This document shows positions 4,459-62,508 of a stretch of DNA of 64,000 nucleotides, in pieces (positions within the stretch are counted from its first letter, which is position 1; each line of letters begins with the position of its first letter). The notes under the pieces were generated by a model. That model saw nothing but the letters and a program-made list of their open reading frames with translations. It had not been told where the DNA came from and made no database searches. The translations under genes were made by a program, and so were the position numbers. The DNA lies in assembly GCA_944392955.1 (NCBI GenBank), contig CALXYK010000004.1:69048-133047 (forward strand). The letters are read 5' to 3'. This stretch comes from an uncultured Alphaproteobacteria bacterium. GTDB lineage: Bacteria > Pseudomonadota > Alphaproteobacteria > Rs-D84 > CACZYB01.

Positions 4459-5544
4459 TTGAATCGTAAATTTTTATATTTTTTCATAAGTTTATTCTTA
4501 CAAATCTCTTTACTCGGAGGTAATACTTTCGCTAGTGTTTCAAAAAATTTTTATATAGTAAAGGGGATTCCTGTTCATTCTTCCTCTTTCTCATCTAGTC
4601 AGGCAAAAAAACTATCCTTAGAAAAGGCAAGAACCGAAGCATTCAACAATGTCCTTTCCCGTCTTCTACTTTCCGAAGATTTACAAAATGTCATCATTCC
4701 AGATGCATACAATATGGAAAAGTTCGTAAAAAGTTTAAAACTTACCAACGAAAAAACCACATCTACTTCTTATAGTGCAAATGTTGATATAGAATTAAAT
4801 AAAAATCTGATTGAAAGTTATTTGGATAATCAAGGATTCGAATTTTTAAAGGATTTACCACCATCAACCCTTATCATAATAAGGGATATTTACGGAGTTC
4901 AAACTGGAATCCATAGTGCTATAAAACAATACGATGACAAATCAAATGTTGTAAAATTTACTATCGCAAATGAAAATGACACTATACCTTCATTTTCAGG
5001 ACAAAGTCAAAAAAAATTATCTCAATTAACTGAATTAAGTGATAGTGATTTTGACTATCTTCGCTCAAAATACAATGTTGAAAATGTTATATTAGTTGAC
5101 TTCCCAACATACTATACAAACTATGATGTTGCATTTTTTGATAAATTATTAGGAATAAAAAAAGAAGTAATTTTCAACAATACATCCGAAGAAAGTGAAG
5201 AAGAAAATGAAGAAGAATCCGAAAATACTTGTTCTAGTGAATGTATGGTAAAAAACTTTTTCAATGCTTTAAATGATGCATATAAGGAAAAAATGTTTGA
5301 AACTGATATATCTCAAAACATTTCGTTAATAGTTCCTATATATTCTTTGGCTGATTGGCTTGACTTACAAAAGAAGTTTTCTACATTATCCGTATTCAAA
5401 GATATGACTGTTCAGGCATTAAAACATAATAAGGCTCAGTTAAAAATAAAATATAATTATGACTTAAATTCTGTTATTGCCTCTCTTTCATCATTGGGAT
5501 TCGGAATAGAAGAAAAGGATGGATACTTACTTATCAAGAGGTAA
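4459..5544 (+). CDS. Hypothetical secreted protein (361 aa) with an acidic Glu/Ser tract
   Basis: TTG start. The N-terminal signal peptide is LFLQISLLGGNTFASV. An acidic run SEESEEENEEESEN is present. No recognisable catalytic motif. It sits immediately upstream of hdaA. Confidence 0.55.
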   Translation: MNRKFLYFFISLFLQISLLGGNTFASVSKNFYIVKGIPVHSSSFSSSQAKKLSLEKARTEAFNNVLSRLLLSEDLQNVIIPDAYNMEKFVKSLKLTNEKTTSTSYSANVDIELNKNLIESYLDNQGFEFLKDLPPSTLIIIRDIYGVQTGIHSAIKQYDDKSNVVKFTIANENDTIPSFSGQSQKKLSQLTELSDSDFDYLRSKYNVENVILVDFPTYYTNYDVAFFDKLLGIKKEVIFNNTSEESEEENEEESENTCSSECMVKNFFNALNDAYKEKMFETDISQNISLIVPIYSLADWLDLQKKFSTLSVFKDMTVQALKHNKAQLKIKYNYDLNSVIASLSSLGFGIEEKDGYLLIKR

Positions 5545-5546
5545 AA

Positions 5547-6227
5547 ATGCAACAACTCCCACTTCTTTTGGAACATAGACGTTTACTTGGTCGTGAAGAT
5601 TTTCTCGTTTCCCCTTGTAATTTAGAAGCCGTAGAATGGATAGACTCTTACCCTGACTGGAACAATATATTTGCCATAGTTGTTTTAGGAAACAAATCAT
5701 CTGGGAAAACACATATTTCATGGTTATTCAGCGAAAAAACAGGTGCAAAAATATATAATTTCAACGAAATAACCGAGGAATTATTTTCAGATATAGTCCC
5801 CATAAATTCAGCATTAGTAATAGAAAATATTGATAACTTAATAGGAAACGAACAGAAAGAAGAAAGCCTATTTCACATAATAAATTATGCTATGGAATGT
5901 AATACAAAACTATTACTCACTTCTTCAACACAACTTTCCACATTAAACTTTTGTTTAATTGATTTAAAAACACGATTACTATCATTTCCTGTTGCAAACA
6001 TATATCCACCTGATGATGAGTTTTTAAAAGCTTTACTTGTAAAACAATTTTTAGAAAAAGATATAATAGTTACCCCAGATATAATAGAATATATAATAAA
6101 ACATATACCAAGAAATGCATCATCAGTCAAATACCTAGTAGAACAAGCAGATTTACTATCATTTGAACAAAAACATAAAATTACTATTCCATTTATAAAA
6201 AAGATTATGGAACAATTTGAAGACTAA
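5547..6227 (+). CDS. hdaA: DnaA-related regulatory inactivator HdaA (truncated DnaA-like AAA+ protein)
   Basis: A 226-aa protein. The N-terminus QQLPLLL...LLGREDFLVSPCNLEAVEWI matches the HdaA/Hda clamp-binding and N-terminal region. It carries Walker-A-like GNKSSGKTH. Confidence 0.7.
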   Translation: MQQLPLLLEHRRLLGREDFLVSPCNLEAVEWIDSYPDWNNIFAIVVLGNKSSGKTHISWLFSEKTGAKIYNFNEITEELFSDIVPINSALVIENIDNLIGNEQKEESLFHIINYAMECNTKLLLTSSTQLSTLNFCLIDLKTRLLSFPVANIYPPDDEFLKALLVKQFLEKDIIVTPDIIEYIIKHIPRNASSVKYLVEQADLLSFEQKHKITIPFIKKIMEQFED

Positions 6228-7966: not shown

Positions 7967-8574
7967 GAATTTTTCATATAATCAAATGCCTTTACCATAT
8001 ATTGCTTACCAGTCCAAATAGTTAAAATACTAGCAATCAATAACAAACATAAACCAACAACATAAATATTAAACAATGTATAATCCCAAAAAGAATTATA
8101 ATATCTATTAAGATAAGGTCTTCCAAATATTAAAAAGGAAATAGCAAATAATTGAGCCGTAGTCTTCCACTTTGCTAACCTTGAAACCGGCATTTTAACA
8201 TGGAAATTTCCCAAATATTCACGAAGTCCAGATACAAAAATTTCACGGCATATAATAACCGAAGCCAAAATAGTTTCAAATTTTCCAATAAATTTATTCT
8301 GAACCAAAACTATTAAAACCGTAGCGACCAATAATTTATCGGCAATCGGATCTAAAAAACGGCCTATTTCCGAAGTCAACTTCATCTTTCTTGATAAATA
8401 CCCATCAAGATAATCTGTAATACTTGCAAATACAAACAAAGCACAAGAAATATAATTCGCCCACATTATATCCTTACTATATAACATACAAAATATAGTA
8501 GGTATAATAAGAATTCTTATATATGTAAGTATATTAGGTAAAGACCAAACTAAATTTTTTGCTTTTTGTTTCAT
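7963..8574 (-). CDS. pgsA: CDP-diacylglycerol--glycerol-3-phosphate 3-phosphatidyltransferase
   Basis: It carries the CDP-alcohol phosphotransferase signature D-x2-D-G-x2-S/AR...G-x3-D-x3-D (DYLDGYLSRKMK...GRFLDPIADKL). It is a 203-aa polytopic membrane protein. Confidence 0.8.
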   Translation of the reverse strand: MKQKAKNLVWSLPNILTYIRILIIPTIFCMLYSKDIMWANYISCALFVFASITDYLDGYLSRKMKLTSEIGRFLDPIADKLLVATVLIVLVQNKFIGKFETILASVIICREIFVSGLREYLGNFHVKMPVSRLAKWKTTAQLFAISFLIFGRPYLNRYYNSFWDYTLFNIYVVGLCLLLIASILTIWTGKQYMVKAFDYMKNS

Positions 8575-10550: not shown

Positions 10551-11078
10551 ATGATATTAAGAAAAAATGATTCTGGTCGTTCCATTGTGGAAATGCTTGG
10601 AGTTTTGGCGATTATGGGTGTTATAACCGTTATGGGTATACAAGGATATTCACAGGCTATTGGAAAAATTAACCGAAATAACCTTGTAGAAGATATTACA
10701 AGAATCGCCCAAGAGGTAAGGGGACTATATGCTGGTCGTTCATCTTATAATGAAAAAGATGGCGCCGATGGTTCCGCAGGATATAATATTGGAACAAACT
10801 TACTTGCAAAAATGAATTATAAACTATCATCACCTTATGGTGGAGATTATAAAATTGAATCATTTGGAACAACAGGTAAGAACCCTGGTTTCTCTGTCAG
10901 TGTTGAAAATGTACCAGTAGAAGATTGCCTATACTTTACAACTATGGCATGGGCTGATGTTATGGAAACAACAACAGGTGTTCCTGGATCCAGTGCTTTC
11001 GCAGGAGATTCTGCACCTGCTACCGGAACAACTTGTCCTGAATCTGATACTGCTGTTATAACTCTTTATTTCAGATAG
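10551..11078 (+). CDS. Type IV pilin-like / pseudopilin protein (class III prepilin signal)
   Basis: The N-terminus carries the prepilin peptidase motif G|RSIVEMLGVLAIMGVITVMGIQGY, which has the pattern of G|FTLIELMIVVAIIG. A C-terminal Cys pair (C...C) resembles the pilin D-region loop. Local GC is noticeably higher than the surrounding sequence. Confidence 0.6.
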   Translation: MILRKNDSGRSIVEMLGVLAIMGVITVMGIQGYSQAIGKINRNNLVEDITRIAQEVRGLYAGRSSYNEKDGADGSAGYNIGTNLLAKMNYKLSSPYGGDYKIESFGTTGKNPGFSVSVENVPVEDCLYFTTMAWADVMETTTGVPGSSAFAGDSAPATGTTCPESDTAVITLYFR

Positions 11079-41986: not shown

Positions 41987-43447
41987 ATGAGGAAAACAAA
42001 AGGATTCATAACATGTTTACTTTTTGTATCAATATATCTTATTGATACTCCTTTTGTTAAGGCACAACGCAATTCTCGTCGTCAAACCAAAACAACAACC
42101 GCTTCAAACTATGCTTCATCATCTGGATTACGAACTAATACAACATTAAGATGTGATAAACCTGGTGATCCTGGATGTATCGGAAGTCAGGGAAGTGCTT
42201 TTCTATCCTGTGGTAAAAATGCTCAAAAAAATAGTTCTCAAACCGCATGTGAATGTATAGATCCACTAAATTATGTAATAAATCCTGCAAATCCAAATGA
42301 ATGTATTGCTAAAACAGATTCTTTTGCAATCGCAGGTAAAAAGGCATGTGGTAATGCCTTAATAAATGCAATAGAAATTGAATGTGAAAATTCTTTCTAT
42401 AACAACGGAATGAATGAGGATAACACAATAAAATGTTATGATGCAAACGACTTATTCTTAAAATTTGACACCTCATCAATAGTTGTTTTTATAGAAGGCA
42501 TTCAATACAAATATGACGATGCATGCTATGCATATACCGAGGAATTAACAAAAAGCATTGCCGAAGATTATAATTTAACAGGTGCAAATTCACCAAATTG
42601 TAAATTAAAACGAACCATTGCCGAGGCATCAAACGAATGTTTTCAGGCAGTATTATCAACAGGAAAGGCAATGGGAGCAACCAATGCAATAGAAACCAAA
42701 CTTGAAAGTCTTTGTGGTATACAGGGGTTAAGGACAAAATGGACTAAATTATTCGGGGAAGAGGAGTTAAAGGGAATAATATTCCCAACAAATATTCCTC
42801 AACTATATATCAATGCTGGTAAGTTAAACCCTGCTGATGGTTTAGAATTAGTTGGAAATGTTCTTGATGGGAAATTCACCGACAAAAGTAATACTTGGGA
42901 AAGGGATATAACTATGATATTAAATTCCCACCTAAACGAAGTTGCCAGTGCCTGTGGACAGGAATATGCCACACAAATGCACAATACCGACATACAGATA
43001 TCAGATGAAAAATCATCTCTTCAAAGAGCTATTGACGAACAAGGTAGCATAAAGGGTGCACAAACATGGATAATGCAACAAGCATCTACTATAATAGGTG
43101 AAAACAAGGCAAATAAACTTGTCCGCGAAGGAACAATTGGCGGCATTAAGGATGAAGATATAGGAAACAACTCTTCAACAACAATATTAGAGTTAAGCCA
43201 AATCACCGAAGAAGAATTAGCACAACAAAACAACTTAACTTCTGGAATATATCTATTAACTTCTGGGAATAAGTATAGAATTGTTGAAATAAGGAAAACT
43301 GGAACAGGTACAACTGCAACAATTGAATATAAAACCATTCCATATTCAAACGATTTACAACTTTCCACTGATGCTTTAAAAGCAATAATTGGAAAAGAGG
43401 AAGATACAACATTAAACCAAAATGATTATATATCATTAGATAATTAA
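41987..43447 (+). CDS. Secreted protein, paralog family member A (Arg-rich mature N-terminus, conserved Cys blocks)
   Basis: ATG at 41987 (MRKTKGF...). The signal peptide is ...IDTPFVKA|QRNSRRQTKTTTAS. The shared block ITMILNSHLNEVASACGQEYATQMHNTDIQISDEKSSLQRAIDEQGSIKG aligns with members B and C. Confidence 0.65.
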   Translation: MRKTKGFITCLLFVSIYLIDTPFVKAQRNSRRQTKTTTASNYASSSGLRTNTTLRCDKPGDPGCIGSQGSAFLSCGKNAQKNSSQTACECIDPLNYVINPANPNECIAKTDSFAIAGKKACGNALINAIEIECENSFYNNGMNEDNTIKCYDANDLFLKFDTSSIVVFIEGIQYKYDDACYAYTEELTKSIAEDYNLTGANSPNCKLKRTIAEASNECFQAVLSTGKAMGATNAIETKLESLCGIQGLRTKWTKLFGEEELKGIIFPTNIPQLYINAGKLNPADGLELVGNVLDGKFTDKSNTWERDITMILNSHLNEVASACGQEYATQMHNTDIQISDEKSSLQRAIDEQGSIKGAQTWIMQQASTIIGENKANKLVREGTIGGIKDEDIGNNSSTTILELSQITEEELAQQNNLTSGIYLLTSGNKYRIVEIRKTGTGTTATIEYKTIPYSNDLQLSTDALKAIIGKEEDTTLNQNDYISLDN

Positions 43448-43457
43448 GGAGAAAAAT

Positions 43458-44819
43458 ATGACTAAAAAATTAATTGCATTGATAGGACTTTCACTATTAT
43501 TTTCACCTCAATCCAATGCGGCAAGGAATACACGTAGAGCAAGCAGTAATACACGATCTGCCTCTCAAAATGTTAGGGTAACAGGACGCACCGTAAACAT
43601 AAATGCGAATGTTTCTGATACTACATATACAGAAACAGATTACTCTAAAATAGCACCCGCAACAGATCCTATTGCAAAAAGGAAATGTACCGAACTTGTA
43701 GTAGAAGCCCTAACCGAATATTGTGGCACTGATGAAGAAAACAAGGAATGTAATAATACGACAGAAGGTTCAAATGAATCTTGTGGCACTGTTAAAAAAT
43801 GTAAAAATGCAACAGAAGCCTATGCAAAAATAAAAATAGAAGATAATCCAAACGGACCTAACGAAATTTATTGTGCTAATTTCATAGAAGAGGCAGTAAA
43901 CAACCTATGGGATTCATTCGATACTTACAAGGCAACAAATGAAAAAAATTGTAATATTGCTTTGGCACGATCCCTTGCTGCCGAAGAATGTTATAGATAT
44001 GCATTAACACAAAAAAATGTTAGATTCTCCATAAACTCCTTTGAAACATTCAAAGAAGAAGAACTCTCAATGTGTAATAAAGCAGCCGTTGTAAAAATAT
44101 ATAAAACAATATCAAACGGAGATACTATAACAGAAGATGAAGCTGGTGACAATATTGCAAGTTATTTTTCCAAGGTTGGTGCAAGTGGCTGGACAAATCT
44201 AGCAGTATACACAAGATTGCTTGACGCAAACGTTGATCTTACAACAACTGAATTCCCACGTGATTTAATCTTATTGGTAAATAGTTTGAAATCCCAAGGA
44301 AATATGATGTGTGGTCAGGATCATTATACCGAACTTGTTGATGCAAATATCCAATTGATTGATAAGACTGGATCTTGGGAAAAACAAATCAAAGAAAAAG
44401 GAGCAATTGCTGGTACCGCAGATTATATTGCAGATACAACAGAATCTATCGTAAATCTAAGGACTTTATTGTCTAATACAATAAAATCAGACAAAGCTGA
44501 AAAAACAGCTCAAAATGCAGAAAAAGCAACTGAAAAACTAGCAGAAATAGATAATGACATTACAATCATAACTGCAAATATTTCAAGATTATCAGATGAG
44601 AACAAAAACAAAAAAGATACAGATAATAACGAAGATTTATCTTTATCAGAACACTTAAATAAAATTTCTGATTTACGAAATAATCTTCCTGAACAAACTG
44701 CAAATGACTACTCTGATAAAATAAAAGAGCTAGAAAAGGAAATCAAAAACACAAAAACTAAATTTAAAAAAGTAAAAGGTAATGAAATAGACTATAATAT
44801 CAACTACCGAAATTCATAA
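43458..44819 (+). CDS. Secreted protein, paralog family member B
   Basis: An SD (AAGGAG) precedes the ATG at 43458. The signal peptide is ...LLFSPQSNA|ARNTRRASSNTRSAS. It shares blocks with C: KRKCTELVVEALTEYCG, NNLWDSFDTYKATNEKNCNIALARSLAAEECYRYALTQKN, and FPRDLILLVNSLKSQGNMMCGQDHY...WEKQIKEKGAIAG. Confidence 0.7.
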   Translation: MTKKLIALIGLSLLFSPQSNAARNTRRASSNTRSASQNVRVTGRTVNINANVSDTTYTETDYSKIAPATDPIAKRKCTELVVEALTEYCGTDEENKECNNTTEGSNESCGTVKKCKNATEAYAKIKIEDNPNGPNEIYCANFIEEAVNNLWDSFDTYKATNEKNCNIALARSLAAEECYRYALTQKNVRFSINSFETFKEEELSMCNKAAVVKIYKTISNGDTITEDEAGDNIASYFSKVGASGWTNLAVYTRLLDANVDLTTTEFPRDLILLVNSLKSQGNMMCGQDHYTELVDANIQLIDKTGSWEKQIKEKGAIAGTADYIADTTESIVNLRTLLSNTIKSDKAEKTAQNAEKATEKLAEIDNDITIITANISRLSDENKNKKDTDNNEDLSLSEHLNKISDLRNNLPEQTANDYSDKIKELEKEIKNTKTKFKKVKGNEIDYNINYRNS

Positions 44820-44870: not shown

Positions 44871-44914
44871 AATAATCCTTGCCCTACTTTCAAAACAATG
44901 ATATAATGAATGGT

Positions 44915-47362
44915 ATGAAAAAATTTTTATTTGCATTATTTTTATTTTTCACAATTCCTGTTTTTGCAAACGATGGAACCGATAATTCTGTAAAAAAACA
45001 ATTAAACATAAAATTTGAACAAAACACTCCAAATAATTTAAAAAAGGCAGCATCAAAATTTATTGAAATAAAGGATCTATATTGTCAAAATAACAACAAT
45101 GCCTTATGTTCAAAATCATATCAATATTCAAATATTTTATCTCAAATAAACACCGCAACCTTTGAACCTACTACTGAAAATTTTCAACTTATTGCAAATT
45201 TTTATAAGGAATTACAGGAATTTTCCAACGAACAAAACAGAATTGAAACCGCCAATAAAAATGACCTTATCGCTCAAATACAAACTAAAAAAACTTTGTT
45301 AAAAACTAACCTAAATAATTTAATAGACTTATTAAATAAGGAAAATTCATTACTTCCAAACCCATTACCACAGGATAAACAATTATCAAAGAATCTAACC
45401 AAACTTTCAAAGGATGATTTAAATAAAAACGACACAAATTTAAAAACACGACAAACCCAACTTACAAATTTAAAATTGCATAATGCACAAAAGGAAATAA
45501 CTTCTGATATACAAATACCTGAAAATATACAAAATTTATCAGAACAAGAATTGAAAAATATTTTACAAACAATAAGTGAGCAGGAAACTGCTATCAACAA
45601 CCAAATTCAACTTACAAATAACAATATAACTATTTTAGAAACAGAAAATGCATCTAAGGAAGCAGAATACAAAAATCTTTTACAAGAATTAACAAAGGCA
45701 AAACAAAAACAGGCTGAACTTTTAAATAAAAAAGATCTTGTCCCAGATAATAAAGGTAATGATAAAAATACCAACGACAAATTATTCAACGAACTTAAAA
45801 ATACAATTACTGATGAAAATAAAAATAATATTAAACAATACAATATCGTTGCAGAATCTTATTCTACAAACGAAGACATTGAAAAGATAAAACAAGAAAT
45901 AGAAAATGTAAATAATAACACAAAACTTCTTGAAAACTTCTTAAATAATCAAAAAAATGAATTGGAAAAATGTGAAAAGGAATTATCATCTATAATAACA
46001 AATATTGATGAATTAAAACCTATGACACTTGAACAATGTCAAAAGGAACTTAAAAAAGCACAAGATGAAAAAATAGAAAAAGAATGTATCGCAGAAAGAT
46101 TAAAGGAATGTTCCGATGAAATAGGAAACCTAAAATCTTTATTCAAATCATCTGTTCAAAATGGAACACCTGACGGATACAAATACCTATACGAAAGTAG
46201 AACTTCATATTGTGCCGATGAAAACAATCCTGTATATGGTGTTGAATGGGTTGGCAATGTTGCTAAAAAAGTAGATACTTTGAAATGGATGTTAAAACCA
46301 ACAAAAAATGTGGAAAATAATCAATGTAGATACAATAATTCCCTACACACAATTACAATATTATCTTTATCCGATGCAAAGGAAAAACTTAAAACTTGTG
46401 TCCGTGATTTAAGACTATTGCAAGAAATAGAAAAGGAATGTAGCGGACTAACTCCTTTACCTGACATATCTGAGATAAAGGGAAGTTCCAATGTTGAAAA
46501 TTATATAAACATAAAGGAAAGCGATTTTAATCAATGTCAAAATAGCATAACTTTATACAAAGGTGTACCTAATACAGCTACTATCGGAAACAACAAGGCA
46601 ATAAAATATTGTAGGAATGCTATTGCATCCGAAGCTTGCAACACCTATCTTGCTGGTGCAATATTGAAATACAAACAAAAAGGATATAATTATTCTTTAA
46701 CCATTCCTGATAACAAATTATCTACCTGTAAATCATACATAGAAGAAAGTTTATGTAATAAATACAGGACAGAAAATAGTATAACTGAAAAACCAACTAC
46801 ACAAAGTGGACAGGAAAGTTATGCCTATACAACTCAGTGTCTAGAATTAGATAATGCTTATGCAAAGATAAAGGAAAATCTAAATTCTATTTCCAGCAGT
46901 GAAATAACATCTTTGGGACAAATAATAAAAAATCAATATGGAAATTTATCTTGTGGATATGGTTGTAGTGCAAGTAGTTTGTTAAAGCGTTCTGATGCAA
47001 ATGATGGTAAGTATCAATCATCTTATGACAGCCAAATAAAATCTTTTGCTGAAAAATATAATGCATTATGTAAATACAATGATAAAACAAGTGCAATACA
47101 AAAAGTTGGAAAAGAAAAAAATAATAATCAATCAAAATACAAAGATGGTTCAATAGATAGCGAAATAGAAAATATTGAAGACATAATGTTTTTAAGGTTA
47201 AAGGAGTTAAATGTCCTAAACAAAAGTCAATTCAATGGAACATCATTAGATTTTCAAAAGAAAAGTTTTGCAAAATTCTTGTTCCATATATACATATACC
47301 ACCATAACTTAAACGCATCTGGATCAATATGTGATCAGGCAAAGGTAATAAGCGAACACTAA
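44915..47362 (+). CDS. Large secreted coiled-coil protein with a Cys-rich C-terminal third (about 815 aa)
   Basis: ATG at 44915 (MKKFLFALFLFFTIPVFA|NDG signal peptide). Residues ~100-430 are Asn/Lys/Glu/Leu-rich coiled-coil. The C-terminal ~350 aa carry at least 20 Cys in spaced pairs. A short motif NAYAKIKEN echoes member B (EAYAKIKIEDN). Confidence 0.6.
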   Translation: MKKFLFALFLFFTIPVFANDGTDNSVKKQLNIKFEQNTPNNLKKAASKFIEIKDLYCQNNNNALCSKSYQYSNILSQINTATFEPTTENFQLIANFYKELQEFSNEQNRIETANKNDLIAQIQTKKTLLKTNLNNLIDLLNKENSLLPNPLPQDKQLSKNLTKLSKDDLNKNDTNLKTRQTQLTNLKLHNAQKEITSDIQIPENIQNLSEQELKNILQTISEQETAINNQIQLTNNNITILETENASKEAEYKNLLQELTKAKQKQAELLNKKDLVPDNKGNDKNTNDKLFNELKNTITDENKNNIKQYNIVAESYSTNEDIEKIKQEIENVNNNTKLLENFLNNQKNELEKCEKELSSIITNIDELKPMTLEQCQKELKKAQDEKIEKECIAERLKECSDEIGNLKSLFKSSVQNGTPDGYKYLYESRTSYCADENNPVYGVEWVGNVAKKVDTLKWMLKPTKNVENNQCRYNNSLHTITILSLSDAKEKLKTCVRDLRLLQEIEKECSGLTPLPDISEIKGSSNVENYINIKESDFNQCQNSITLYKGVPNTATIGNNKAIKYCRNAIASEACNTYLAGAILKYKQKGYNYSLTIPDNKLSTCKSYIEESLCNKYRTENSITEKPTTQSGQESYAYTTQCLELDNAYAKIKENLNSISSSEITSLGQIIKNQYGNLSCGYGCSASSLLKRSDANDGKYQSSYDSQIKSFAEKYNALCKYNDKTSAIQKVGKEKNNNQSKYKDGSIDSEIENIEDIMFLRLKELNVLNKSQFNGTSLDFQKKSFAKFLFHIYIYHHNLNASGSICDQAKVISEH

Positions 47363-48009: not shown

Positions 48010-49668
48010 ATGAAAAAAAGATTTTATATATTATTTTTTATATCTGTTGGTTTTTTAATAAATTCCAATGTTTTTTCAGCACCAAATCGCTCACAACGAT
48101 CCCGTTCTGCATCAACTTCTATCAATACTATTCGCGGGAATTACAATACTTCAACAAATACTTATACCGGAACTAAAACAACTACAACCACACAAACCAG
48201 TAATGATACTTTACAATGTGGTATTGCACCTGATGCGACAAACAATCTTGCAAAACGACAATGTGCAATTGCTATGGCCGAAGCGTTAAAGTTATATTGT
48301 GCTTCATATCCATGCAACAGCAAAATAAAGGTTGAACTATCTTTTAATTTTGCACTACCAAGTTTAGAAAAAATATCCTCTACAATAAATGGTGAAAGTT
48401 GTTCGGGTGCAAATCTTGATAAATTTTGTGCACCATTCCAAAGTTCTTTGATAAATAATCTTTGGGATTTATATTCTGAACAATCTATAAGAGATAGAAA
48501 AAACTGCGATATGGCAAAGGCAAAATATTCCGCAGCCCAAGATTGCTTTGCATATATACAATCTGCTAAAAACAATTCTGTCGGCAACAGATTTAGTAAA
48601 AGTAAAATCACCGAACTTGATAAAGAAATAGATAAACGATGCGGTAAAGAAGCAATCATAAATAAATATAAATCTATCAGTATTGATGATTGGACCGAAG
48701 AAGATGAAAATACATTCTTTAAAAACATAAGTTTCACTTCAAATGCAACAGGCGAACTTATAGACTCTTATCAAGGAGAAAAGCAATTATCTTCCACTGT
48801 TGCAAGTTTATTTGCAAATACAGGGGACAATACATGGAATTATGCCGGACAAATTGGAAGACTTTTTGATCTTAATTTCAGCACTAAATCTTCTACATAT
48901 CCAAGGGAGTTAGTCGTAATAGCAAACACATTTGTAACAGAAGGAGAAGCTGCTTGTGGTAAAGATTTTAAAGTTGATATGGAAACAACATCATTTGAAA
49001 TAAGTGATTCTCGCTCTGCACTTGAAAAACAAATTGCAAAGAAAGGTATATTAAAAGGATTGTTTGATTTTGGTATAGATAATACCGTTGGTGCAATAAG
49101 CGAGGATAAGGCTCAAAGTTGGAAAGAAAAAGGTATCCTCGGCAAAGTTTCAGAAAGCAAAGATAAAAAAACGGCAGAACAACTTGATAAAATTTTATCA
49201 AAATTACAAATTCTTTCAACAAATTGTAATACATCTGCTGGTAATTTTGAACAAATAACAACAGAAATAAAATTTATATTAAACGAATTAAAAACAATAA
49301 TAGGAAACACAGATAGATTTGAAGCAAACAAAGAAAAAATAAGAGAAGTTTTAGATACTATATTAACATTCAAAAGGGATCCTAACGAAGAAATAACAAT
49401 AACTTCTAATACCCAGGCTGAATTTAACTTAACAATATTAAAGTTAGAAACTTTAAGATTTACATGTCCAAATGGCGACTTTAATACAACTGAACAAGAA
49501 ACTATCCAGTATGAATTTAGTTATGATACTTCTGCTCCTAATGTAATAAATACCATACTAAATTCTTTAAAGGAAAGTGTAATATTTACAGGAACATTGA
49601 TATATTCTGATTATGAAAATGGTGAAGAAATCAAACAAATATTAGCACCACTAAATGATATAAAATAA
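48010..49668 (+). CDS. Secreted protein, paralog family member C
   Basis: The signal peptide is ...INSNVFSA|PNRSQRSRSASTSINTIRGN. The blocks KRQCAIAMAEALKLYCAS, NNLWDLYSEQSIRDRKNCDMAKAKYSAAQDCFAYIQSAKN and YPRELVVIANTFVTEGEAACGKDF...LEKQIAKKGILKG align with A and B. Confidence 0.7.
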   Translation: MKKRFYILFFISVGFLINSNVFSAPNRSQRSRSASTSINTIRGNYNTSTNTYTGTKTTTTTQTSNDTLQCGIAPDATNNLAKRQCAIAMAEALKLYCASYPCNSKIKVELSFNFALPSLEKISSTINGESCSGANLDKFCAPFQSSLINNLWDLYSEQSIRDRKNCDMAKAKYSAAQDCFAYIQSAKNNSVGNRFSKSKITELDKEIDKRCGKEAIINKYKSISIDDWTEEDENTFFKNISFTSNATGELIDSYQGEKQLSSTVASLFANTGDNTWNYAGQIGRLFDLNFSTKSSTYPRELVVIANTFVTEGEAACGKDFKVDMETTSFEISDSRSALEKQIAKKGILKGLFDFGIDNTVGAISEDKAQSWKEKGILGKVSESKDKKTAEQLDKILSKLQILSTNCNTSAGNFEQITTEIKFILNELKTIIGNTDRFEANKEKIREVLDTILTFKRDPNEEITITSNTQAEFNLTILKLETLRFTCPNGDFNTTEQETIQYEFSYDTSAPNVINTILNSLKESVIFTGTLIYSDYENGEEIKQILAPLNDIK

Positions 49669-51888: not shown

Positions 51889-53598
51889 ATGATAAAAAAA
51901 ACAATTTTTGATACAGATGCAGAATTATACTCAACTGGCGAAAATTTCGCTGAATTATTTAACTCTATGTATAACAATTCTTCTAAGTTAGAAGGTTACG
52001 TTACAAAAGGAACAATCGTAGACATTAAAAAGGATTTCGTAATAGTAAACGTTGGACTAAAATCCGAAGGTCATATAGACATAAGGGAATTTAGAAACGA
52101 CGAAATCAAAGTCGGTGATATAGTCGATGTTTATGTAGAACGCTACGAAGGCAAAGATGGTCTTCTTATCGCATCAAGAGAAAAAGCAAGAAAAGAAGAA
52201 ACATGGAAAGAAATTGAAAAGCAAGTAGCCGAAAACAAAATAGTAACCGGACAAATAACAGACAGAGTCCGTGGCGGTTTCACCGTAGATTTAAACGGCA
52301 TACCTGCATTTATGCCATCTTCTCAACTAGATATAAATCCAATCAAAGATATTTCATCACTTATGAATAAACCAATGGAATTCAAAATTATTAAAATGGA
52401 TAAACTAAGATCTAATTTAATAGTTTCTCATAGGGCTATTTTAGAAGGTGATAGAGCAGAAAAAAGAGACGAAATAATAAAGAATATAAAGATAGGCGAC
52501 ACAATGGAAGGTATTATAAAAAATATAACCGATTACGGTGTATTTATAGACCTTGGCGGTGTAGACGGCCTTCTTCATATAACAGATATTTCATGGAAAC
52601 GAGTATCAAATCCAAATGAATTATTCCAAATCGGTCAAAAAATAACTGTAAAAGTTATCAACTTTGATAAAGATTCAGGCAGAGTTTCACTTGGAATGAA
52701 ACAACTTGAAAACGATCCATGGGAAAACATTGATAAATTTGAAGTAAACAAAATCTATAAGGGAACCGTTACAAACCTAACCGATTATGGTGCATTTATA
52801 GATTTAGAAGATGGTATAGAAGGACTTGTCCACGTATCAGAAATCAGTTGGACAAAGAAAAATATCCACCCATCAAAAGTAATTTCCACAGGTGATGTTG
52901 TTGATGTAATGGTTTTGGAAATAGACAGGGAAAAACGTCGTATTTCACTTGGCATAAAACAATGTACACCAAATCCATGGAAGGAATTCGCAGAAACCCA
53001 CAAGGTAGGTGATACAATAGAAGGCGAAATCAAAAACATTACCGAATTTGGTATTTTTGTAAGCCTTGGCAACGATCTTGACGGCATGGTTCACCTATCT
53101 GATATAGATTGGGATAAAAATCCAGAAGAAGCCGTAAAGGATTATTCAAAAGGCATGATGGTAAAGGCAAAAATCCTTGAAATAGATGCCGATAAGGAAA
53201 GAATTTCCCTTGGAATCAAACAATTAAAAGAAGACAGAGTTGCTTCTTCCCTTGACAAAGTTAAAAAGGGAGAAATTGTTACATGTGTTGTAAAGGAAAT
53301 AAAAGAAGATGGAATTTCTGTTGATGTAAATGGATTGACTGGCTTCATTAAAACAAACGATCTTTCAAAAATTAAATCAGAACAAAAACCAGAAAGATTC
53401 GCAGTTGATGAAAAGGTTGATGCAAAAATTACAAACATTGATACAAAAACAATGCAACTTACATTATCTATAAAGGCTTACGAAGTAGAAGAAGAAAAAA
53501 AGATAATGAAAGAATATGGCTCAACTGACACCGGTGCTCTACTTGGTGACATCTTGGGCGCAAGTATCAAAGAAGCAGAAAAAAAATCAAAAAAATAA
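51889..53598 (+). CDS. rpsA: 30S ribosomal protein S1
   Basis: A 569-aa protein with six S1/OB repeats carrying the recurrent G-x-V/I-x-x-I/V-x-x-F/Y-G-x-F-V motif (e.g. GTVTNLTDYGAFIDL, GEIKNITEFGIFVSL). Confidence 0.9.
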   Translation: MIKKTIFDTDAELYSTGENFAELFNSMYNNSSKLEGYVTKGTIVDIKKDFVIVNVGLKSEGHIDIREFRNDEIKVGDIVDVYVERYEGKDGLLIASREKARKEETWKEIEKQVAENKIVTGQITDRVRGGFTVDLNGIPAFMPSSQLDINPIKDISSLMNKPMEFKIIKMDKLRSNLIVSHRAILEGDRAEKRDEIIKNIKIGDTMEGIIKNITDYGVFIDLGGVDGLLHITDISWKRVSNPNELFQIGQKITVKVINFDKDSGRVSLGMKQLENDPWENIDKFEVNKIYKGTVTNLTDYGAFIDLEDGIEGLVHVSEISWTKKNIHPSKVISTGDVVDVMVLEIDREKRRISLGIKQCTPNPWKEFAETHKVGDTIEGEIKNITEFGIFVSLGNDLDGMVHLSDIDWDKNPEEAVKDYSKGMMVKAKILEIDADKERISLGIKQLKEDRVASSLDKVKKGEIVTCVVKEIKEDGISVDVNGLTGFIKTNDLSKIKSEQKPERFAVDEKVDAKITNIDTKTMQLTLSIKAYEVEEEKKIMKEYGSTDTGALLGDILGASIKEAEKKSKK

Positions 53599-53648: not shown

Positions 53649-54023
53649 TGCTTGATTTATAAAAAATAATATCTTAATATAAAAACAAGACATAAATATT
53701 TTATGTTTAGTACCAGAGATGGTGCGGGCCGTGACAAGCCTTTTGAAAACGAACGGTGTTGAATAGTAGCATCGTAAGTTGCTATTTTTTTATACCCAAA
53801 CGAACGGTATAATTATAAGGCAACGATTTATTCCTCAACTTTGTGGTTGGGGAGCCATAGTGATACAACAGGAATAATTTCTTTTATTCTAAAAACTATG
53901 GGATCATCAGTTCGTTTTATGATTTGTCAACTCGCCCAACCTTACTCTCAAATCTAAATATAAAATCATATGTCCGTTAATACGGGTAAGTATTACGCAT
54001 ATGCTTACCCACCCCAATAAACA

Positions 54024-54109
54024 AAAGGGTGAAGGTTTTCATGGCTTCTTCACCCTCCCGAAACAAAGGGGTGAAGGTTTTCATGGCTTCTTCACCCTCC
54101 CAAACAAAG
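54024..54109 (+). repeat. Tandem direct repeat (2 x ~42 bp), each unit containing an 8-bp-stem hairpin (GGGTGAAG-N10-CTTCACCC)
   Basis: AAAGGGTGAAGGTTTTCATGGCTTCTTCACCCTCCCGAAACA is followed by a near-identical copy. The pair lies immediately upstream of the SD/ATG of the first Cys-rich gene at 54132. Confidence 0.6.
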
Positions 54110-54131: not shown

Positions 54132-54521
54132 ATGAAAAAAACACTACTTTTACTTTTAATAATAACATATGCAACCCCATCATATGCACTAACACTACAA
54201 ACATTAAAAGATACTCTTGAAAAATATTGTGTTCCTAATACCGCCACTTGCTTAGATCCGAAATTACAGGCGGATTATACAAACGGCAAATGTGTATGTA
54301 AAGAAGATGGTCGCTATTGGAACAAAGAAGACAGAGCCTGCGAAGAATGCACCGGACCAACAATAGTAAATGAAGAAGGTGACGGCTGTAAACCAATCAA
54401 ATGCCCTGATGGTTATGCAATAATTTTAATAACAGATGGAAATTGCCCTTCTGGATATTATCTAGCACAAATACAAAACGGAAATTGTCCTGCGGGCTAT
54501 GAACTTTGGAGTTATAAATAA
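54132..54521 (+). CDS. Small secreted Cys-rich protein (129 aa) with CPxGY-type repeats
   Basis: An SD (AACAGGAGAG) precedes the ATG. The signal peptide is LLLLLIITYATPSYA|LTLQ. There are 12 Cys, including KCPDGYAIILITDGNCPSGYYLAQIQNGNCPAGYELW. Confidence 0.6.
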   Translation: MKKTLLLLLIITYATPSYALTLQTLKDTLEKYCVPNTATCLDPKLQADYTNGKCVCKEDGRYWNKEDRACEECTGPTIVNEEGDGCKPIKCPDGYAIILITDGNCPSGYYLAQIQNGNCPAGYELWSYK

Positions 54522-54540
54522 AAAAGAAAGAGAGGAAAAC

Positions 54541-55419
54541 ATGAAACTAAAACATTCACTTTTGATATGTATAAGCGGTGGAATTGCCATCACATCACAA
54601 ACACTTAATGCACAAACATTTTACCAATGTATCCAATGCAAAAGCGGAACCTATGCCACAAGCACAGGTTGCGAACCTTGTCCAAAGGGATATTATTGCA
54701 CAGACGGAATAAAAACTGCCTGCCCTGAATTTCAGACCACTTCTAGCACAGGAAATTCAAGTAGTAGTGCTTGCCATATTCAAGAAGTAAAAATTTATGG
54801 TAAAAGTGTAACATCTGGGGTAATATCAACTCAATATGAGACTATTCCTGTAAACCATAGTGCATTCACTTGTGACAAAAACAGTTTTCCTAAATTATTT
54901 GGAACTGGTGGACTTACTCCAAGTATAAGTGGATGTGTGGTAAGTATTTTAGGACATTATACATATGATATAGGTAAATATGGCAATGGACAATATTACA
55001 ACATAGTTTGTGATGGAATACCATGTAATGAATATCATGTAGAAAAAGTAAATACCTGCTCAGCTGGATACTATATACCTTCTGGCTCAACATCGTGTCA
55101 ACCATGTGGTTATGGATACTATTGCTCTGGCGGAAAAAGAACCGGTTGTCCTGTTAATAAAACAACAACTACTACAACAGCATCAAGTTCAAGTGCTTGC
55201 ATAGATCAATATTGGGGTTTCAGATACAAAACTAGTTCTGGAACTTCAACATTAAAATATAAAATTGAACAAGTAGGTTATTGCCCTATACAAAGTGGTT
55301 GTACCTTCATTGATGCAACAGGGGCAATAGGAGGAGGAGCTGGAGGAACTTACATGGGATTATGTTCAACTAGTGGACCTTGTTCTCACCCTACTATAAT
55401 CAAATACACACCACAGTAA
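54541..55419 (+). CDS. Secreted Cys-rich repeat protein (about 292 aa) with eukaryote-like C-x-P-C-x-x-G-Y-Y-C repeats
   Basis: The ATG at 54541 follows the SD AAAGAGAGGAAAAC. The ORF-track start at 54499 overlaps the upstream gene. The signal peptide is ...ITSQTLNA|QTF. Repeats include CIQCKSGTYATSTGCEPCPKGYYCTDGIKTACPEF and CSAGYYIPSGSTSCQPCGYGYYCSGGKRTGCPVNKTT. Poly-Thr/Ser linkers (TTTTTTASSSSAC) are present. Confidence 0.6.
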   Translation: MKLKHSLLICISGGIAITSQTLNAQTFYQCIQCKSGTYATSTGCEPCPKGYYCTDGIKTACPEFQTTSSTGNSSSSACHIQEVKIYGKSVTSGVISTQYETIPVNHSAFTCDKNSFPKLFGTGGLTPSISGCVVSILGHYTYDIGKYGNGQYYNIVCDGIPCNEYHVEKVNTCSAGYYIPSGSTSCQPCGYGYYCSGGKRTGCPVNKTTTTTTASSSSACIDQYWGFRYKTSSGTSTLKYKIEQVGYCPIQSGCTFIDATGAIGGGAGGTYMGLCSTSGPCSHPTIIKYTPQ

Positions 55420-55472
55420 AAATAAAAATACCCCCAGAAGGTTATCTGGGGGTAAAAATTTCACAAAATTTA

Positions 55473-55715
55473 TTAAACATTCAATGCAGCACGATAACGT
55501 TCTGTCATTTCATCAAGTTCTGTTCTATCTGCTTCGTCCAATTTCTTTAATCTTAACACAACTTTCATAATTTTTGGATCATAACCGAAATCCTTTGCCT
55601 CTGCATATATTTCGCGAATATCACTACGGATATTTGCCATTTCTTCTTCTAATCTTTCGATTCTATCCATAAAACTTGTTAATTGTTCTGCTTGAATTCC
55701 ATCTGTCTTTGGCAT
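55473..55715 (-). CDS. gapR: GapR-like nucleoid-associated protein (DUF2312)
   Basis: An 80-aa protein. The core [48 protein letters not shown] matches the conserved alphaproteobacterial GapR core (…[32 protein letters not shown]…). Confidence 0.7.
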   Translation of the reverse strand: [80 protein letters not shown]

Positions 55716-62130: not shown

Positions 62131-62508
62131 ATGGTAGCAAAAAAAACAAACACAAAAAAAACTGCTAGTAAAGCAAAAAAAGTTACAAAACCTGCAGTAA
62201 AGGCTGAAATGACAAACGCACAAACTTGCTCATGTGGTCCTACTTGCTCATGTGGTCCTGATTGCAAATGTCACTGTCACTGCTGTAACAAAGCAAAAGC
62301 TCTTATCGTATTGCTTTTAGTGGTAATTGCAACAGTAATAGTAACTTTGGTTGTAACAAAATCCCCATGTGGCCGTAGAAGAGCCCCAATGGGACCATGT
62401 CCATACGAAAGAAAAGCAGAAATGGGACCAAACAGAAGAATGAAAAACAGAATGCCTCCTGCACCAAAGGAAGCACCTGCACCTGCTCCTGTTGCTGCAA
62501 AGGACTAA
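62131..62508 (+). CDS. Metallothionein-like membrane protein: Lys-rich N-terminus, Cys/His cluster (CSCGPTCSCGPDCKCHCHCC), single TM helix, Pro/Arg-rich tail
   Basis: A strong SD (AAAAGGAGAAAA) precedes the ATG. The sequence is MVAKKTNTKKTASKAKKVTKPAVKAEMTNAQTCSCGPTCSCGPDCKCHCHCCNKAKALIVLLLVVIATVIVTLVVTK.... A terminator follows the stop. Local GC is clearly elevated. Confidence 0.55.
   Translation: MVAKKTNTKKTASKAKKVTKPAVKAEMTNAQTCSCGPTCSCGPDCKCHCHCCNKAKALIVLLLVVIATVIVTLVVTKSPCGRRRAPMGPCPYERKAEMGPNRRMKNRMPPAPKEAPAPAPVAAKD

Follow-up and report, generated by a model that had tools for sequence, protein, structure and literature searches.

A pair of cysteine-rich genes between rpsA and gapR

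The stretch of DNA analysed here (64 kb from contig CALXYK010000004.1 of an uncultured alphaproteobacterium; hereafter the window) carries two adjacent genes, A and B, which encode proteins with export signals and an unusually high content of cysteine. An initial annotation, made from the sequence alone, had placed the two genes at 54132-54521 and 54541-55419, and open reading frames (ORFs) of 129 and 292 aa lie exactly there, both on the plus strand. The two ORFs are separated by 19 nt and each is preceded, at a distance of 6 to 8 nt, by a Shine-Dalgarno sequence (AGGAG/GAGG). The pair is bordered by rpsA (51889-53598) on one side and by a convergent gapR gene (55473-55715), then pyk, on the other. 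No paralogue of A or B is present within the window. The parts of the locus are as follows.

54132-54521, plus strand: gene A, 129 aa; signal peptide (aa 1-19), helix (LTLQTLKDTLEKYCVP), Cys hairpins, three CPxGY motifs
54541-54726, plus strand: N-terminal part of B, constant between strains; aa 1-24 form the signal peptide and aa 25-62 (QTFYQCIQCKSGTYATSTGCEPCPKGYYC...) the first Cys-ladder modules
54728-55088, plus strand: strain-specific central segment of B; Thr/Ser linker and orphan domain of about 105 aa
55057-55152, plus strand: second Cys-ladder module of B (aa 173-204; CSAGYYIPSGSTSCQPCGYGYYCSGGKRTGCP)
55153-55419, plus strand: poly-Thr/Ser linker (aa 205-219), C-terminal domain (aa 220-292) and stop codon of B
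55429-55454, between B (plus) and gapR (minus): hairpin resembling a bidirectional intrinsic terminator, its 10-bp stem includes 6 GC pairs, and it has a T-run when read on the minus strand and an A-run/T-rich tail when read on the plus strand

Cysteine accounts for 7.8% of the residues in A and 7.2% in B, as against 0 to 3.1% in 57 of the 58 other long ORFs of the window. The cysteine richness first proposed for both products is thus borne out, but the counts given with it (12 and about 30) were too high: A has 10 cysteines and B has 22 (21 after the signal peptide). Signal peptides and lipoboxes were judged by eye. On this basis the N-termini of A (MKK-TLLLLLIITYATP-SYA/LT) and B (MKLKH-SLLICISGGIAITS-QTLNA/QT) are both of the Sec type, with positive charge, then a hydrophobic stretch, then small residues, in agreement with the signal peptides proposed earlier. 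Neither ends in a canonical lipobox ([LVI][ASTVI][GAS]C). B does contain the tetrapeptide LLIC at aa 7-10, preceded by just four hydrophobic residues and with Ile at position -1; its relatives have no cysteine in the signal peptide, nor does A.

The cysteine-rich strings quoted in the initial annotation map to aa 44-62 of B (CEPCPKGYYCTDGIKTACP), aa 186-204 of B (CQPCGYGYYCSGGKRTGCP) and aa 105-126 of A (CPSGYYLAQIQNGNCPAGYELW), and the Thr/Ser linkers are likewise present (TTSSTGNSSSSAC; NKTTTTTTASSSSAC). What had been overstated is the extent of repetition. B does contain full modules of the form C-x2-C-x2-G-Y-Y-C-x2-G-x3-C-P, but these number two (aa 44-62 and 186-204) and are accompanied by two half modules; about 60% of the mature protein is non-repeat, being made up of the orphan central segment (aa 63 to about 170) and the 73-aa C-terminal domain. 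A has its three CPxGY hairpin motifs in the C-terminal part and no CxxC-GYYC module.

Neither of the non-repeat parts of B has a Pfam match. Searches by blastp and tblastx yielded no homologues of the central segment beyond those in two identical alleles (L006 and L007), and no source for it was found in the other frames, on the other strand, or elsewhere in the window or in the other loci. The C-terminal domain is restricted to alleles of the window species (100%, 88%, 81% and 34% identity); it ends in ...HPTIIKYTPQ, without a hydrophobic segment.

Diversification among strains is confined to B

Five metagenome contigs from the same species (L001 to L005) are 98-99.9% identical to the window at the nucleotide level in the regions flanking the pair. 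Within B, blastn alignment to these contigs ends at 54727 and resumes at 55089, or, in the case of L005, not until 55420. The interval corresponds to a 361-bp insert in the window allele, for which no relative is detectable except in the identical alleles L006 and L007. At the position of the insert, the other alleles carry one or two canonical repeat units of 52 aa (156 nt). Allele lengths are 201, 202, 252, 253 and 292 aa, and all alleles are in frame. Residues 1 to 53 are invariant in all five alleles and residues 54 to 62 nearly so, and in L005 the C-terminal domain differs as well, with 34% identity. The two units of L001 are 87% identical over 183 nt, including a run of 42 identical nt in a self-blastn comparison, which is enough for unequal recombination; Tandem Repeats Finder (TRF) did not report the 156-nt repeat in L001, which self-blastn did detect.

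Nonsynonymous (dN) and synonymous (dS) divergence, and their ratio (omega), were estimated by the method of Nei and Gojobori, with the following results.

rpsA, gapR, pyk and gfo: dS 0-0.06; dN 0-0.007; omega 0-0.2
Gene A, between strains: dS 0.012-0.09; dN 0.003-0.010; omega 0.1-0.55
Last 89 codons of B, window versus L003: dS 0; dN 0.067 (13 nonsynonymous and 0 synonymous changes)
Last 89 codons of B, window versus L002: dS 0.21 (about 10 times that of the flanks); dN 0.12
Last 89 codons of B, window versus L005: dS about 1; dN 0.84

By these estimates gene A is under purifying selection. The 13:0 ratio in the C-terminal part of B stands against 3:15 in the flanking genes (Fisher p = 3e-6). 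B is a mosaic hot spot, and strong diversification is confined to it. No long homopolymer or short tandem repeat, such as phase variation would need, is found; the only length differences between assemblies upstream of A are T4/T5 and A4/A5, possibly assembly noise.

The modules of B belong with Ephrin-receptor-like repeats

Among Pfam families, B is matched best by PF07699 (Ephrin_rec_like, previously called GCC2_GCC3). With three stretches, the strongest at aa 176-220, the allele of the window reaches 20.2 bits (E 5e-4), slightly short of the gathering cutoff of 23.1 bits. The other alleles of the same locus are all above it (44.3, 25.7, 32.9 and 48.1 bits), as are orthologues and relatives in other genera (41.9-80 bits); E values for alleles and orthologues range from 1e-12 to 1e-22. 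With 9.8 bits, gene A stays under the cutoff. NCD3G, ELAPOR1-TNFR, TNFR_c6 and Furin-like_2 give sub-threshold matches over the same stretches. No match to TNFR_c6 (PF00020, cutoff 29.4 bits) is obtained with window B, the alleles reaching 15.5-25.3 bits, and only the eukaryote-like protein P0022 passes this cutoff (33.2 bits). Window B likewise gives no match to the Furin-like families PF15913 and PF00757 (cutoff 28 bits), for which P0002 and P0005 score 19.9 and 18.2 bits. The family of Giardia variant surface proteins (VSPs; PF03302) is not matched by B even at E<=10. Thus, among the families that the initial annotation had anticipated, GCC2_GCC3 comes out on top, furin-like repeats are seen below threshold and VSP repeats are absent. 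Weak sub-threshold matches to HypA and to a cytochrome lipoprotein were also recorded.

B was modelled with AlphaFold2 from an alignment of 13 sequences. The model is confident in the modules alone, with predicted local distance difference test (pLDDT) scores of 83-89 at aa 30-80 and 77-87 at aa 170-222; scores drop below 50 in the central segment and in the C-terminal domain. When the confident parts were compared with the PDB by Foldseek, only eukaryotic extracellular cysteine-rich domains were returned. These include ELAPOR1 (E 2.6e-4), the cysteine-rich domains of EphA2 and EphA4 (54-57 columns, root-mean-square deviation (rmsd) 2.4-4.0 A), thyroglobulin (55 columns, rmsd 2.4 A), the Chlamydomonas mastigoneme protein Mst1 and 4-1BB. 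At the sequence level, the PDB entries matched by B are only Mst1 (E 5e-4) and thyroglobulin. On the strength of the model, the modules of B are predicted to adopt a disulfide-ladder beta-hairpin fold like that of the cysteine-rich domain of Eph receptors.

A profile search over 1.84 billion representative sequences returned giant multi-repeat proteins as top matches, the three named ones being eukaryotic. Being swamped by such giant eukaryote-type repeat proteins, this deep search gives little information on the nearest relatives of B. The eukaryote-like character first attributed to the repeat is upheld by the family, by the structural matches and by the named deep-search matches. In the literature searched, we found no description of GCC2_GCC3 or Ephrin_rec_like repeats in bacteria.

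A and B form a module that recurs across genera

Direct homologue searches with A and B returned same-locus alleles only. Further loci were found by inspecting the regions downstream of rpsA in related genomes and the surroundings of profile matches. A scan of the genome collection with B gave nothing; in JGI metagenomes, the profile of A gave nothing and the profile of the B N-terminus gave one locus. Altogether, an A-like gene is found directly 5' of a B-like gene in six independent loci (those of the window species, L014, L018, L088/L089, L090 and L095). As L014 and L089 come from the same metagenome-assembled genome (MAG; GCA_944390685.1), that genome has two modules; its A copies are 76% identical and the C-terminal domains of its B proteins are unrelated. 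One metagenome protein (P0055) combines both types in a single chain: its A-like head (aa 17-104; 33% identity to A, local blastp E 1.5e-11) is joined to repeats like those of B.

The B-like proteins share a signal peptide, a mature N-terminus of the form AQTFYQC..C..GTY and 2-5 modules; the AQTFYQC start is common to B and to relatives from other genera. The modules are followed by one of at least five unrelated non-repeat C-terminal domains. Throughout the alignments the Cys framework is invariant, and the ORFs are intact across genera. Every named bacterial relative is annotated as a hypothetical protein. The model of A reaches a pLDDT of 62, and a fold search with it gave no significant match. 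The possibility that A and B are of phage or defence identity was considered and set aside, since scans of A, B, P0002 and P0005 against PHROGs and PADLOC profiles gave no match at E<=0.01.

A sister species (L008; rpsA 94% identical) has neither A nor B and keeps the rpsA-gapR-pyk-gfo synteny. Judging by this absence, the module is accessory in nature.

Several observations were made on B-like genes in other settings. A Gly-rich C-terminal head (G.Y...L.GG.GG..., ending in ...LKIYK) recurs in L014 (7752-8537, minus strand), L018 (1731-3137, minus strand) and L093 (1-759), and has no Pfam match at E<=1. The C-terminal domain of window B was considered as a shortened version of this head, an idea abandoned with an hhalign probability of 0.1. 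Two adjacent B-like genes lie near gyrB in L093 (1-1626)/L094, from the same sample as L001 (BRZ_QT). One has a Gly-rich head like those of L014 and L018 and the other is P0068; these genes may be further paralogues in the window species, the coverage of the contig resembling that of L001. In L092 (4386-6485; GCA_037194045.1), a distant contig with a GC content of 25.5%, an ORF of the prepilin type (N_methyl) and a B-like protein of 494 aa with Ephrin_rec_like repeats (P0007) lie one after the other in the same frame, with just one TAA between them. Read-through, a pseudogene and a pilin-repeat fusion protein are all conceivable explanations of this arrangement. The window itself has a solitary type IVb pilin-like gene (10551-11078, plus strand), with a PilS N-terminal domain (37.2 bits, cutoff 22) and a prepilin-like N-terminus. 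This gene and the L092 arrangement bear on the exposure of B as leads only.

Host lineage and origin of the genes

The window has a GC content of 30.4%. At third codon positions (GC3), the GC fraction is 0.21 in A and 0.19 in B, within the range of the flanking genes (0.18-0.25). We had considered a foreign origin by composition and dropped it on account of this match; the native composition of A and B gives no sign of recent import from a eukaryote. The initial annotation had suggested that the genes might be eukaryote-derived. A recent origin of this kind finds no support in the native GC3, or in a bacterial family with its own signal peptide, AQTFYQC N-terminus and partner gene. The closest rpsA genes among species representatives belong to uncultured "Alphaproteobacteria bacterium" MAGs from animal and human guts: MAG035 (94% identity), a rumen MAG (92%), one from water-deer rectum (91%) and one from Hadza gut (88%), followed by Candidatus Enterousia at about 53%. 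The closest genomes being uncultured gut and rumen MAGs, the earlier description of the host as an intracellular alphaproteobacterium is equally unsupported. In the related order Rs-D84, genomes are smaller than 1 Mbp and lack biosynthetic pathways, and a partner-dependent lifestyle is suspected (PMC12306168).

A conserved RNA-like motif and hairpins upstream of A

The region between rpsA and A contains two features of note, which are listed below with the other copies of the first.

53826-53950, plus strand: structured RNA-like motif of about 120 nt, three helices supported by covariation; candidate 5' leader or small RNA
54019-54102, plus strand, 30 nt upstream of A: tandem duplication of a 42-nt unit, each unit with a GGGTGAAG...CTTCACCC hairpin
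L008 7910-8030; L013 8170-8278; L014 9045-9174 (minus strand): copies of the RNA-like motif
L018 4011-4126 (minus strand); L088 5352-5482; L093 3054-3171 (minus strand): copies of the RNA-like motif

A covariance model of the motif (R1) was built from four loci, and three further loci were found with it at 36-68 bits. Over the seven sequences, 91% of cells are paired and compensatory double changes occur in 15 of the 23 pairs. None of 500 shuffles reached the observed values, and slid controls gave 41-60% pairing. A fourth helix was tested and found unsupported. The motif lies 5' of an A-like gene, on the same strand, in the window (180 nt), L014 (28 nt), L088 (44 nt) and L018 (410 nt). It also occurs in L008, L013 and L093 without the A-B pair, hence it is not strictly tied to the module. 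The motif has no Rfam 15 match at E<=1; in the Rfam scans no family attains its gathering score (best E 0.085, to an unrelated microRNA model), and ARAGORN detects no tRNA or tmRNA in the motif. An integron attC-like identity was considered and, on inspection by eye, discarded, since the sequence does not agree with the core sites (GTTRRRY / RYYYAAC) and an integrase is lacking nearby. The motif is a separate candidate for a new regulatory RNA.

The 42-nt duplication is the only repeat that TRF reports (period 42, 96% matches). It occurs once in the window and is kept in all strains, with T4 or T5 in the loops. A further hairpin (GGGTAAG...CTTACCC) precedes it at about 53985-54012. In L008, which lacks A and B, the motif is followed by some 170 nt (8170-8340) of about 55% GC in a genome of about 30% GC; this segment has no convincing ORF and no Rfam match.

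Other features of the window

Some additional ORFs drew attention. At 62131-62508 (plus strand) a small Lys-rich protein is encoded, with 8.8% Cys in clusters of the CSCGPTCSCGPDC type and, after these, a hydrophobic segment. Pfam gives no match for it, and a similar ORF lies in L019 at 5332-5646; the product is perhaps a metallothionein-like membrane protein. Four large ORFs on the plus strand have signal-peptide-like N-termini (41987-43447, 43458-44819, 44906-47362 and 48010-49668). In the first, second and fourth, the signal peptide is followed by a stretch rich in Arg, Ser and Thr, and these three seem to be members of one paralogous family that flanks ruvA. Pfam scans of two of the four gave no match.

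Discussion

Taken together, a constant stalk, a linker, an exchangeable head, a partner protein, export signals and diversification confined to B are best accommodated if B is an exposed protein with a binding or coat function. The sharp differences in B between strains that are otherwise about 99% identical also point to an exposed protein under diversifying selection. We therefore favour, with about even confidence, a reading in which B is an exposed binding or coat protein made of a stalk and a variable head, with A as its conserved small partner. Surface exposure, contact between A and B, the adhesion or coat function and the nature of the selective agent are what we infer here from the observations above.

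According to this proposal, A and B form a small operon-like unit, found repeatedly within one clade of gut Alphaproteobacteria that are uncultured and low in GC. The two proteins would be exported by the Sec pathway, their disulfides presumably being formed in the periplasm. In B, the constant N-terminal stack of Ephrin-receptor-like/TNFR-like cysteine-ladder modules would make up a rigid stalk, followed by a Thr/Ser linker and then by the non-repeat head, which is swapped among strains, paralogues and genera. A, a small conserved protein in which related Cys hairpins are predicted to lie behind an N-terminal helix, would partner the constant N-terminal part of B as an anchor, a cap or a co-subunit. 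B would act outside the cell, bound to the surface or released, and its variable parts would be recognised externally, be it by host immunoglobulin A, by phage, or by a bound partner or host cell. On this view, three processes generate the variation in B: repeat units of 156 nt recombine unequally, segments lying between conserved modules are replaced, and the head acquires point substitutions that change amino acids.

A number of points weigh against this proposal. No route across the outer membrane was found: lipobox, beta-barrel, autotransporter domain and recognisable anchor are all absent, and no secretion-system genes adjoin the module, which leaves room for a periplasmic location. The interaction between A and B is deduced just from gene adjacency and one fusion. 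No binding function can be read from the head or from the orphan central segment, both of which lack homologues and are modelled with low confidence. The 13:0 excess comes from one allele pair. Finally, all sequences are short-read metagenome assemblies, in which repeat copy number could be affected by assembly, and L006/L007 as well as L003/L004 may be the same samples assembled twice.

The PF07699 modules of Eph receptors, ELAPOR1 and Mst1 have the same Cys spacing as B (C-x2-C-x2-G-x-Y ... C). The hidden Markov model cutoff of the family is passed by B alleles and orthologues, and the predicted ladder superposes on EphA2/EphA4 and ELAPOR1. In the known proteins these modules are used in tandem as an extracellular stalk, as is proposed for B. 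Unlike the eukaryotic proteins, however, the B-like proteins are found in bacteria, are 200-300 aa long with 2-5 modules, start with a Sec signal and the AQTFYQC N-terminus, have a small partner gene of their own and carry a C-terminal head, free of repeats, that can be exchanged; the window allele, moreover, scores under the family cutoff.

The VSPs of Giardia and the immobilisation antigens of ciliates share with B the CxxC-rich repeats, the extracytoplasmic setting, the origin in a gut organism and a high variability among variants, and the resemblance would suggest an exposed variable coat for B. Yet several features of these protist proteins are missing from B, namely the PF03302 match, the C-terminal transmembrane helix, the CRGKA tail and a glycosylphosphatidylinositol signal. 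Furthermore, VSPs vary by switching within a large gene family in one cell, whereas the variation in B is allelic, between strains, at one locus, in addition to a few paralogues. On a more speculative note, A and B together might be a counterpart of these protist proteins in gut Alphaproteobacteria with reduced genomes: a two-component, disulfide-laddered stalk-and-head system, derived from or convergent on eukaryotic GCC2_GCC3 repeats, diversified by cassette-like recombination, serving in attachment to a partner cell (of host or protist) or in escape from mucosal antibodies or phages, and controlled through a structured RNA leader of a kind not described before. We regard this fuller picture as rather unlikely in its entirety.

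Alternatively, B could be a secreted mimic or effector that engages a molecule of a eukaryotic partner (host epithelium or a gut protist) by means of repeats acquired from a eukaryote. All of its structural matches and PDB sequence matches are to eukaryotic extracellular receptor or stalk domains, the named top matches of the deep search are eukaryotic, and the lineage inhabits animal guts, related reduced-genome lineages being suspected of partner dependence. B recalls the eukaryote-like proteins of symbionts and pathogens with ankyrin, LRR, Sel1 or TPR repeats, in which a mainly eukaryotic repeat is likewise found in a secreted protein of a small-genome, host-associated bacterium. The repeat class of B is another one, however: disulfide ladders depend on an oxidising compartment, so that B would not be a cytosolic type III or type IV effector. 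Signals for a secretion system were not found. Against mimicry stand the native GC3 and the possession across genera of an own signal peptide, N-terminus and partner gene, the latter arguing for long residence in bacteria. In addition, the known eukaryotic modules, such as those of the Eph cysteine-rich domain and Mst1, are mostly spacers and not ligand-binding sites. All in all, we consider mimicry of this kind improbable, though worth bearing in mind.

A second alternative would place both proteins in the periplasm, in a structural, redox or metal-binding role, with the cysteines as ligands or redox centres and the variation in B reflecting relaxed constraint. Indeed, the Sec signal is the only one visible, no way across the outer membrane was identified, redox and metal sites typically have CxxC motifs as well, and the sub-threshold matches to HypA and a cytochrome lipoprotein would fit. 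The Cys spacing and the predicted fold are nonetheless those of disulfide ladders, and the narrow distribution is unlike the broad conservation expected of a housekeeping periplasmic protein. Nor does neutral drift account for alleles that stay in frame despite large replacements or for the 13:0 nonsynonymous excess in one pair. This view has, in our estimation, little chance of being correct.

The constant N-terminus and sharply bounded variable C-terminus of B, with at least five unrelated C-terminal types among its relatives, together with mosaic recombination, are also reminiscent of polymorphic toxins such as CdiA-CT and Rhs-CT, in which unrelated C-terminal domains recombine behind a constant N-terminal part. 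B would then be a toxin or bacteriocin with a constant delivery part and exchangeable toxic domains directed against competitors. Unlike those systems, however, B is a very small protein that lacks a cognate immunity gene, any known toxin domain and a delivery domain. What follows B is the terminator and the convergent gapR, and not a co-varying immunity gene; A does not fill this role, as copies that are 76% identical stand beside unrelated heads. The heads give no Pfam toxin match, and no secretion or delivery system lies nearby. A toxin function thus appears very unlikely. Lastly, that A and B are fast-decaying ORFans without function, as might be thought from the very few homologues returned by direct search, their uniform annotation as hypothetical proteins and the absence of the module from the sister species, is most implausible in view of the conservation of the module across genera, the intact ORFs and Shine-Dalgarno sites, the purifying selection estimated for A and the invariant Cys framework.

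We thus return to an exposed stalk-and-head protein with a small partner as the reading that we prefer. A repeat class known from eukaryotic extracellular proteins is found here in bacterial "hypothetical proteins". The locus further illustrates how head domains can be swapped on a stalk of disulfide ladders that provides the scaffold for recombination, and it could serve as a strain marker. Being among the few loci that differ between near-identical strains of a small-genome gut lineage, it is a candidate for what these cells show to their host, to a partner and to phages.

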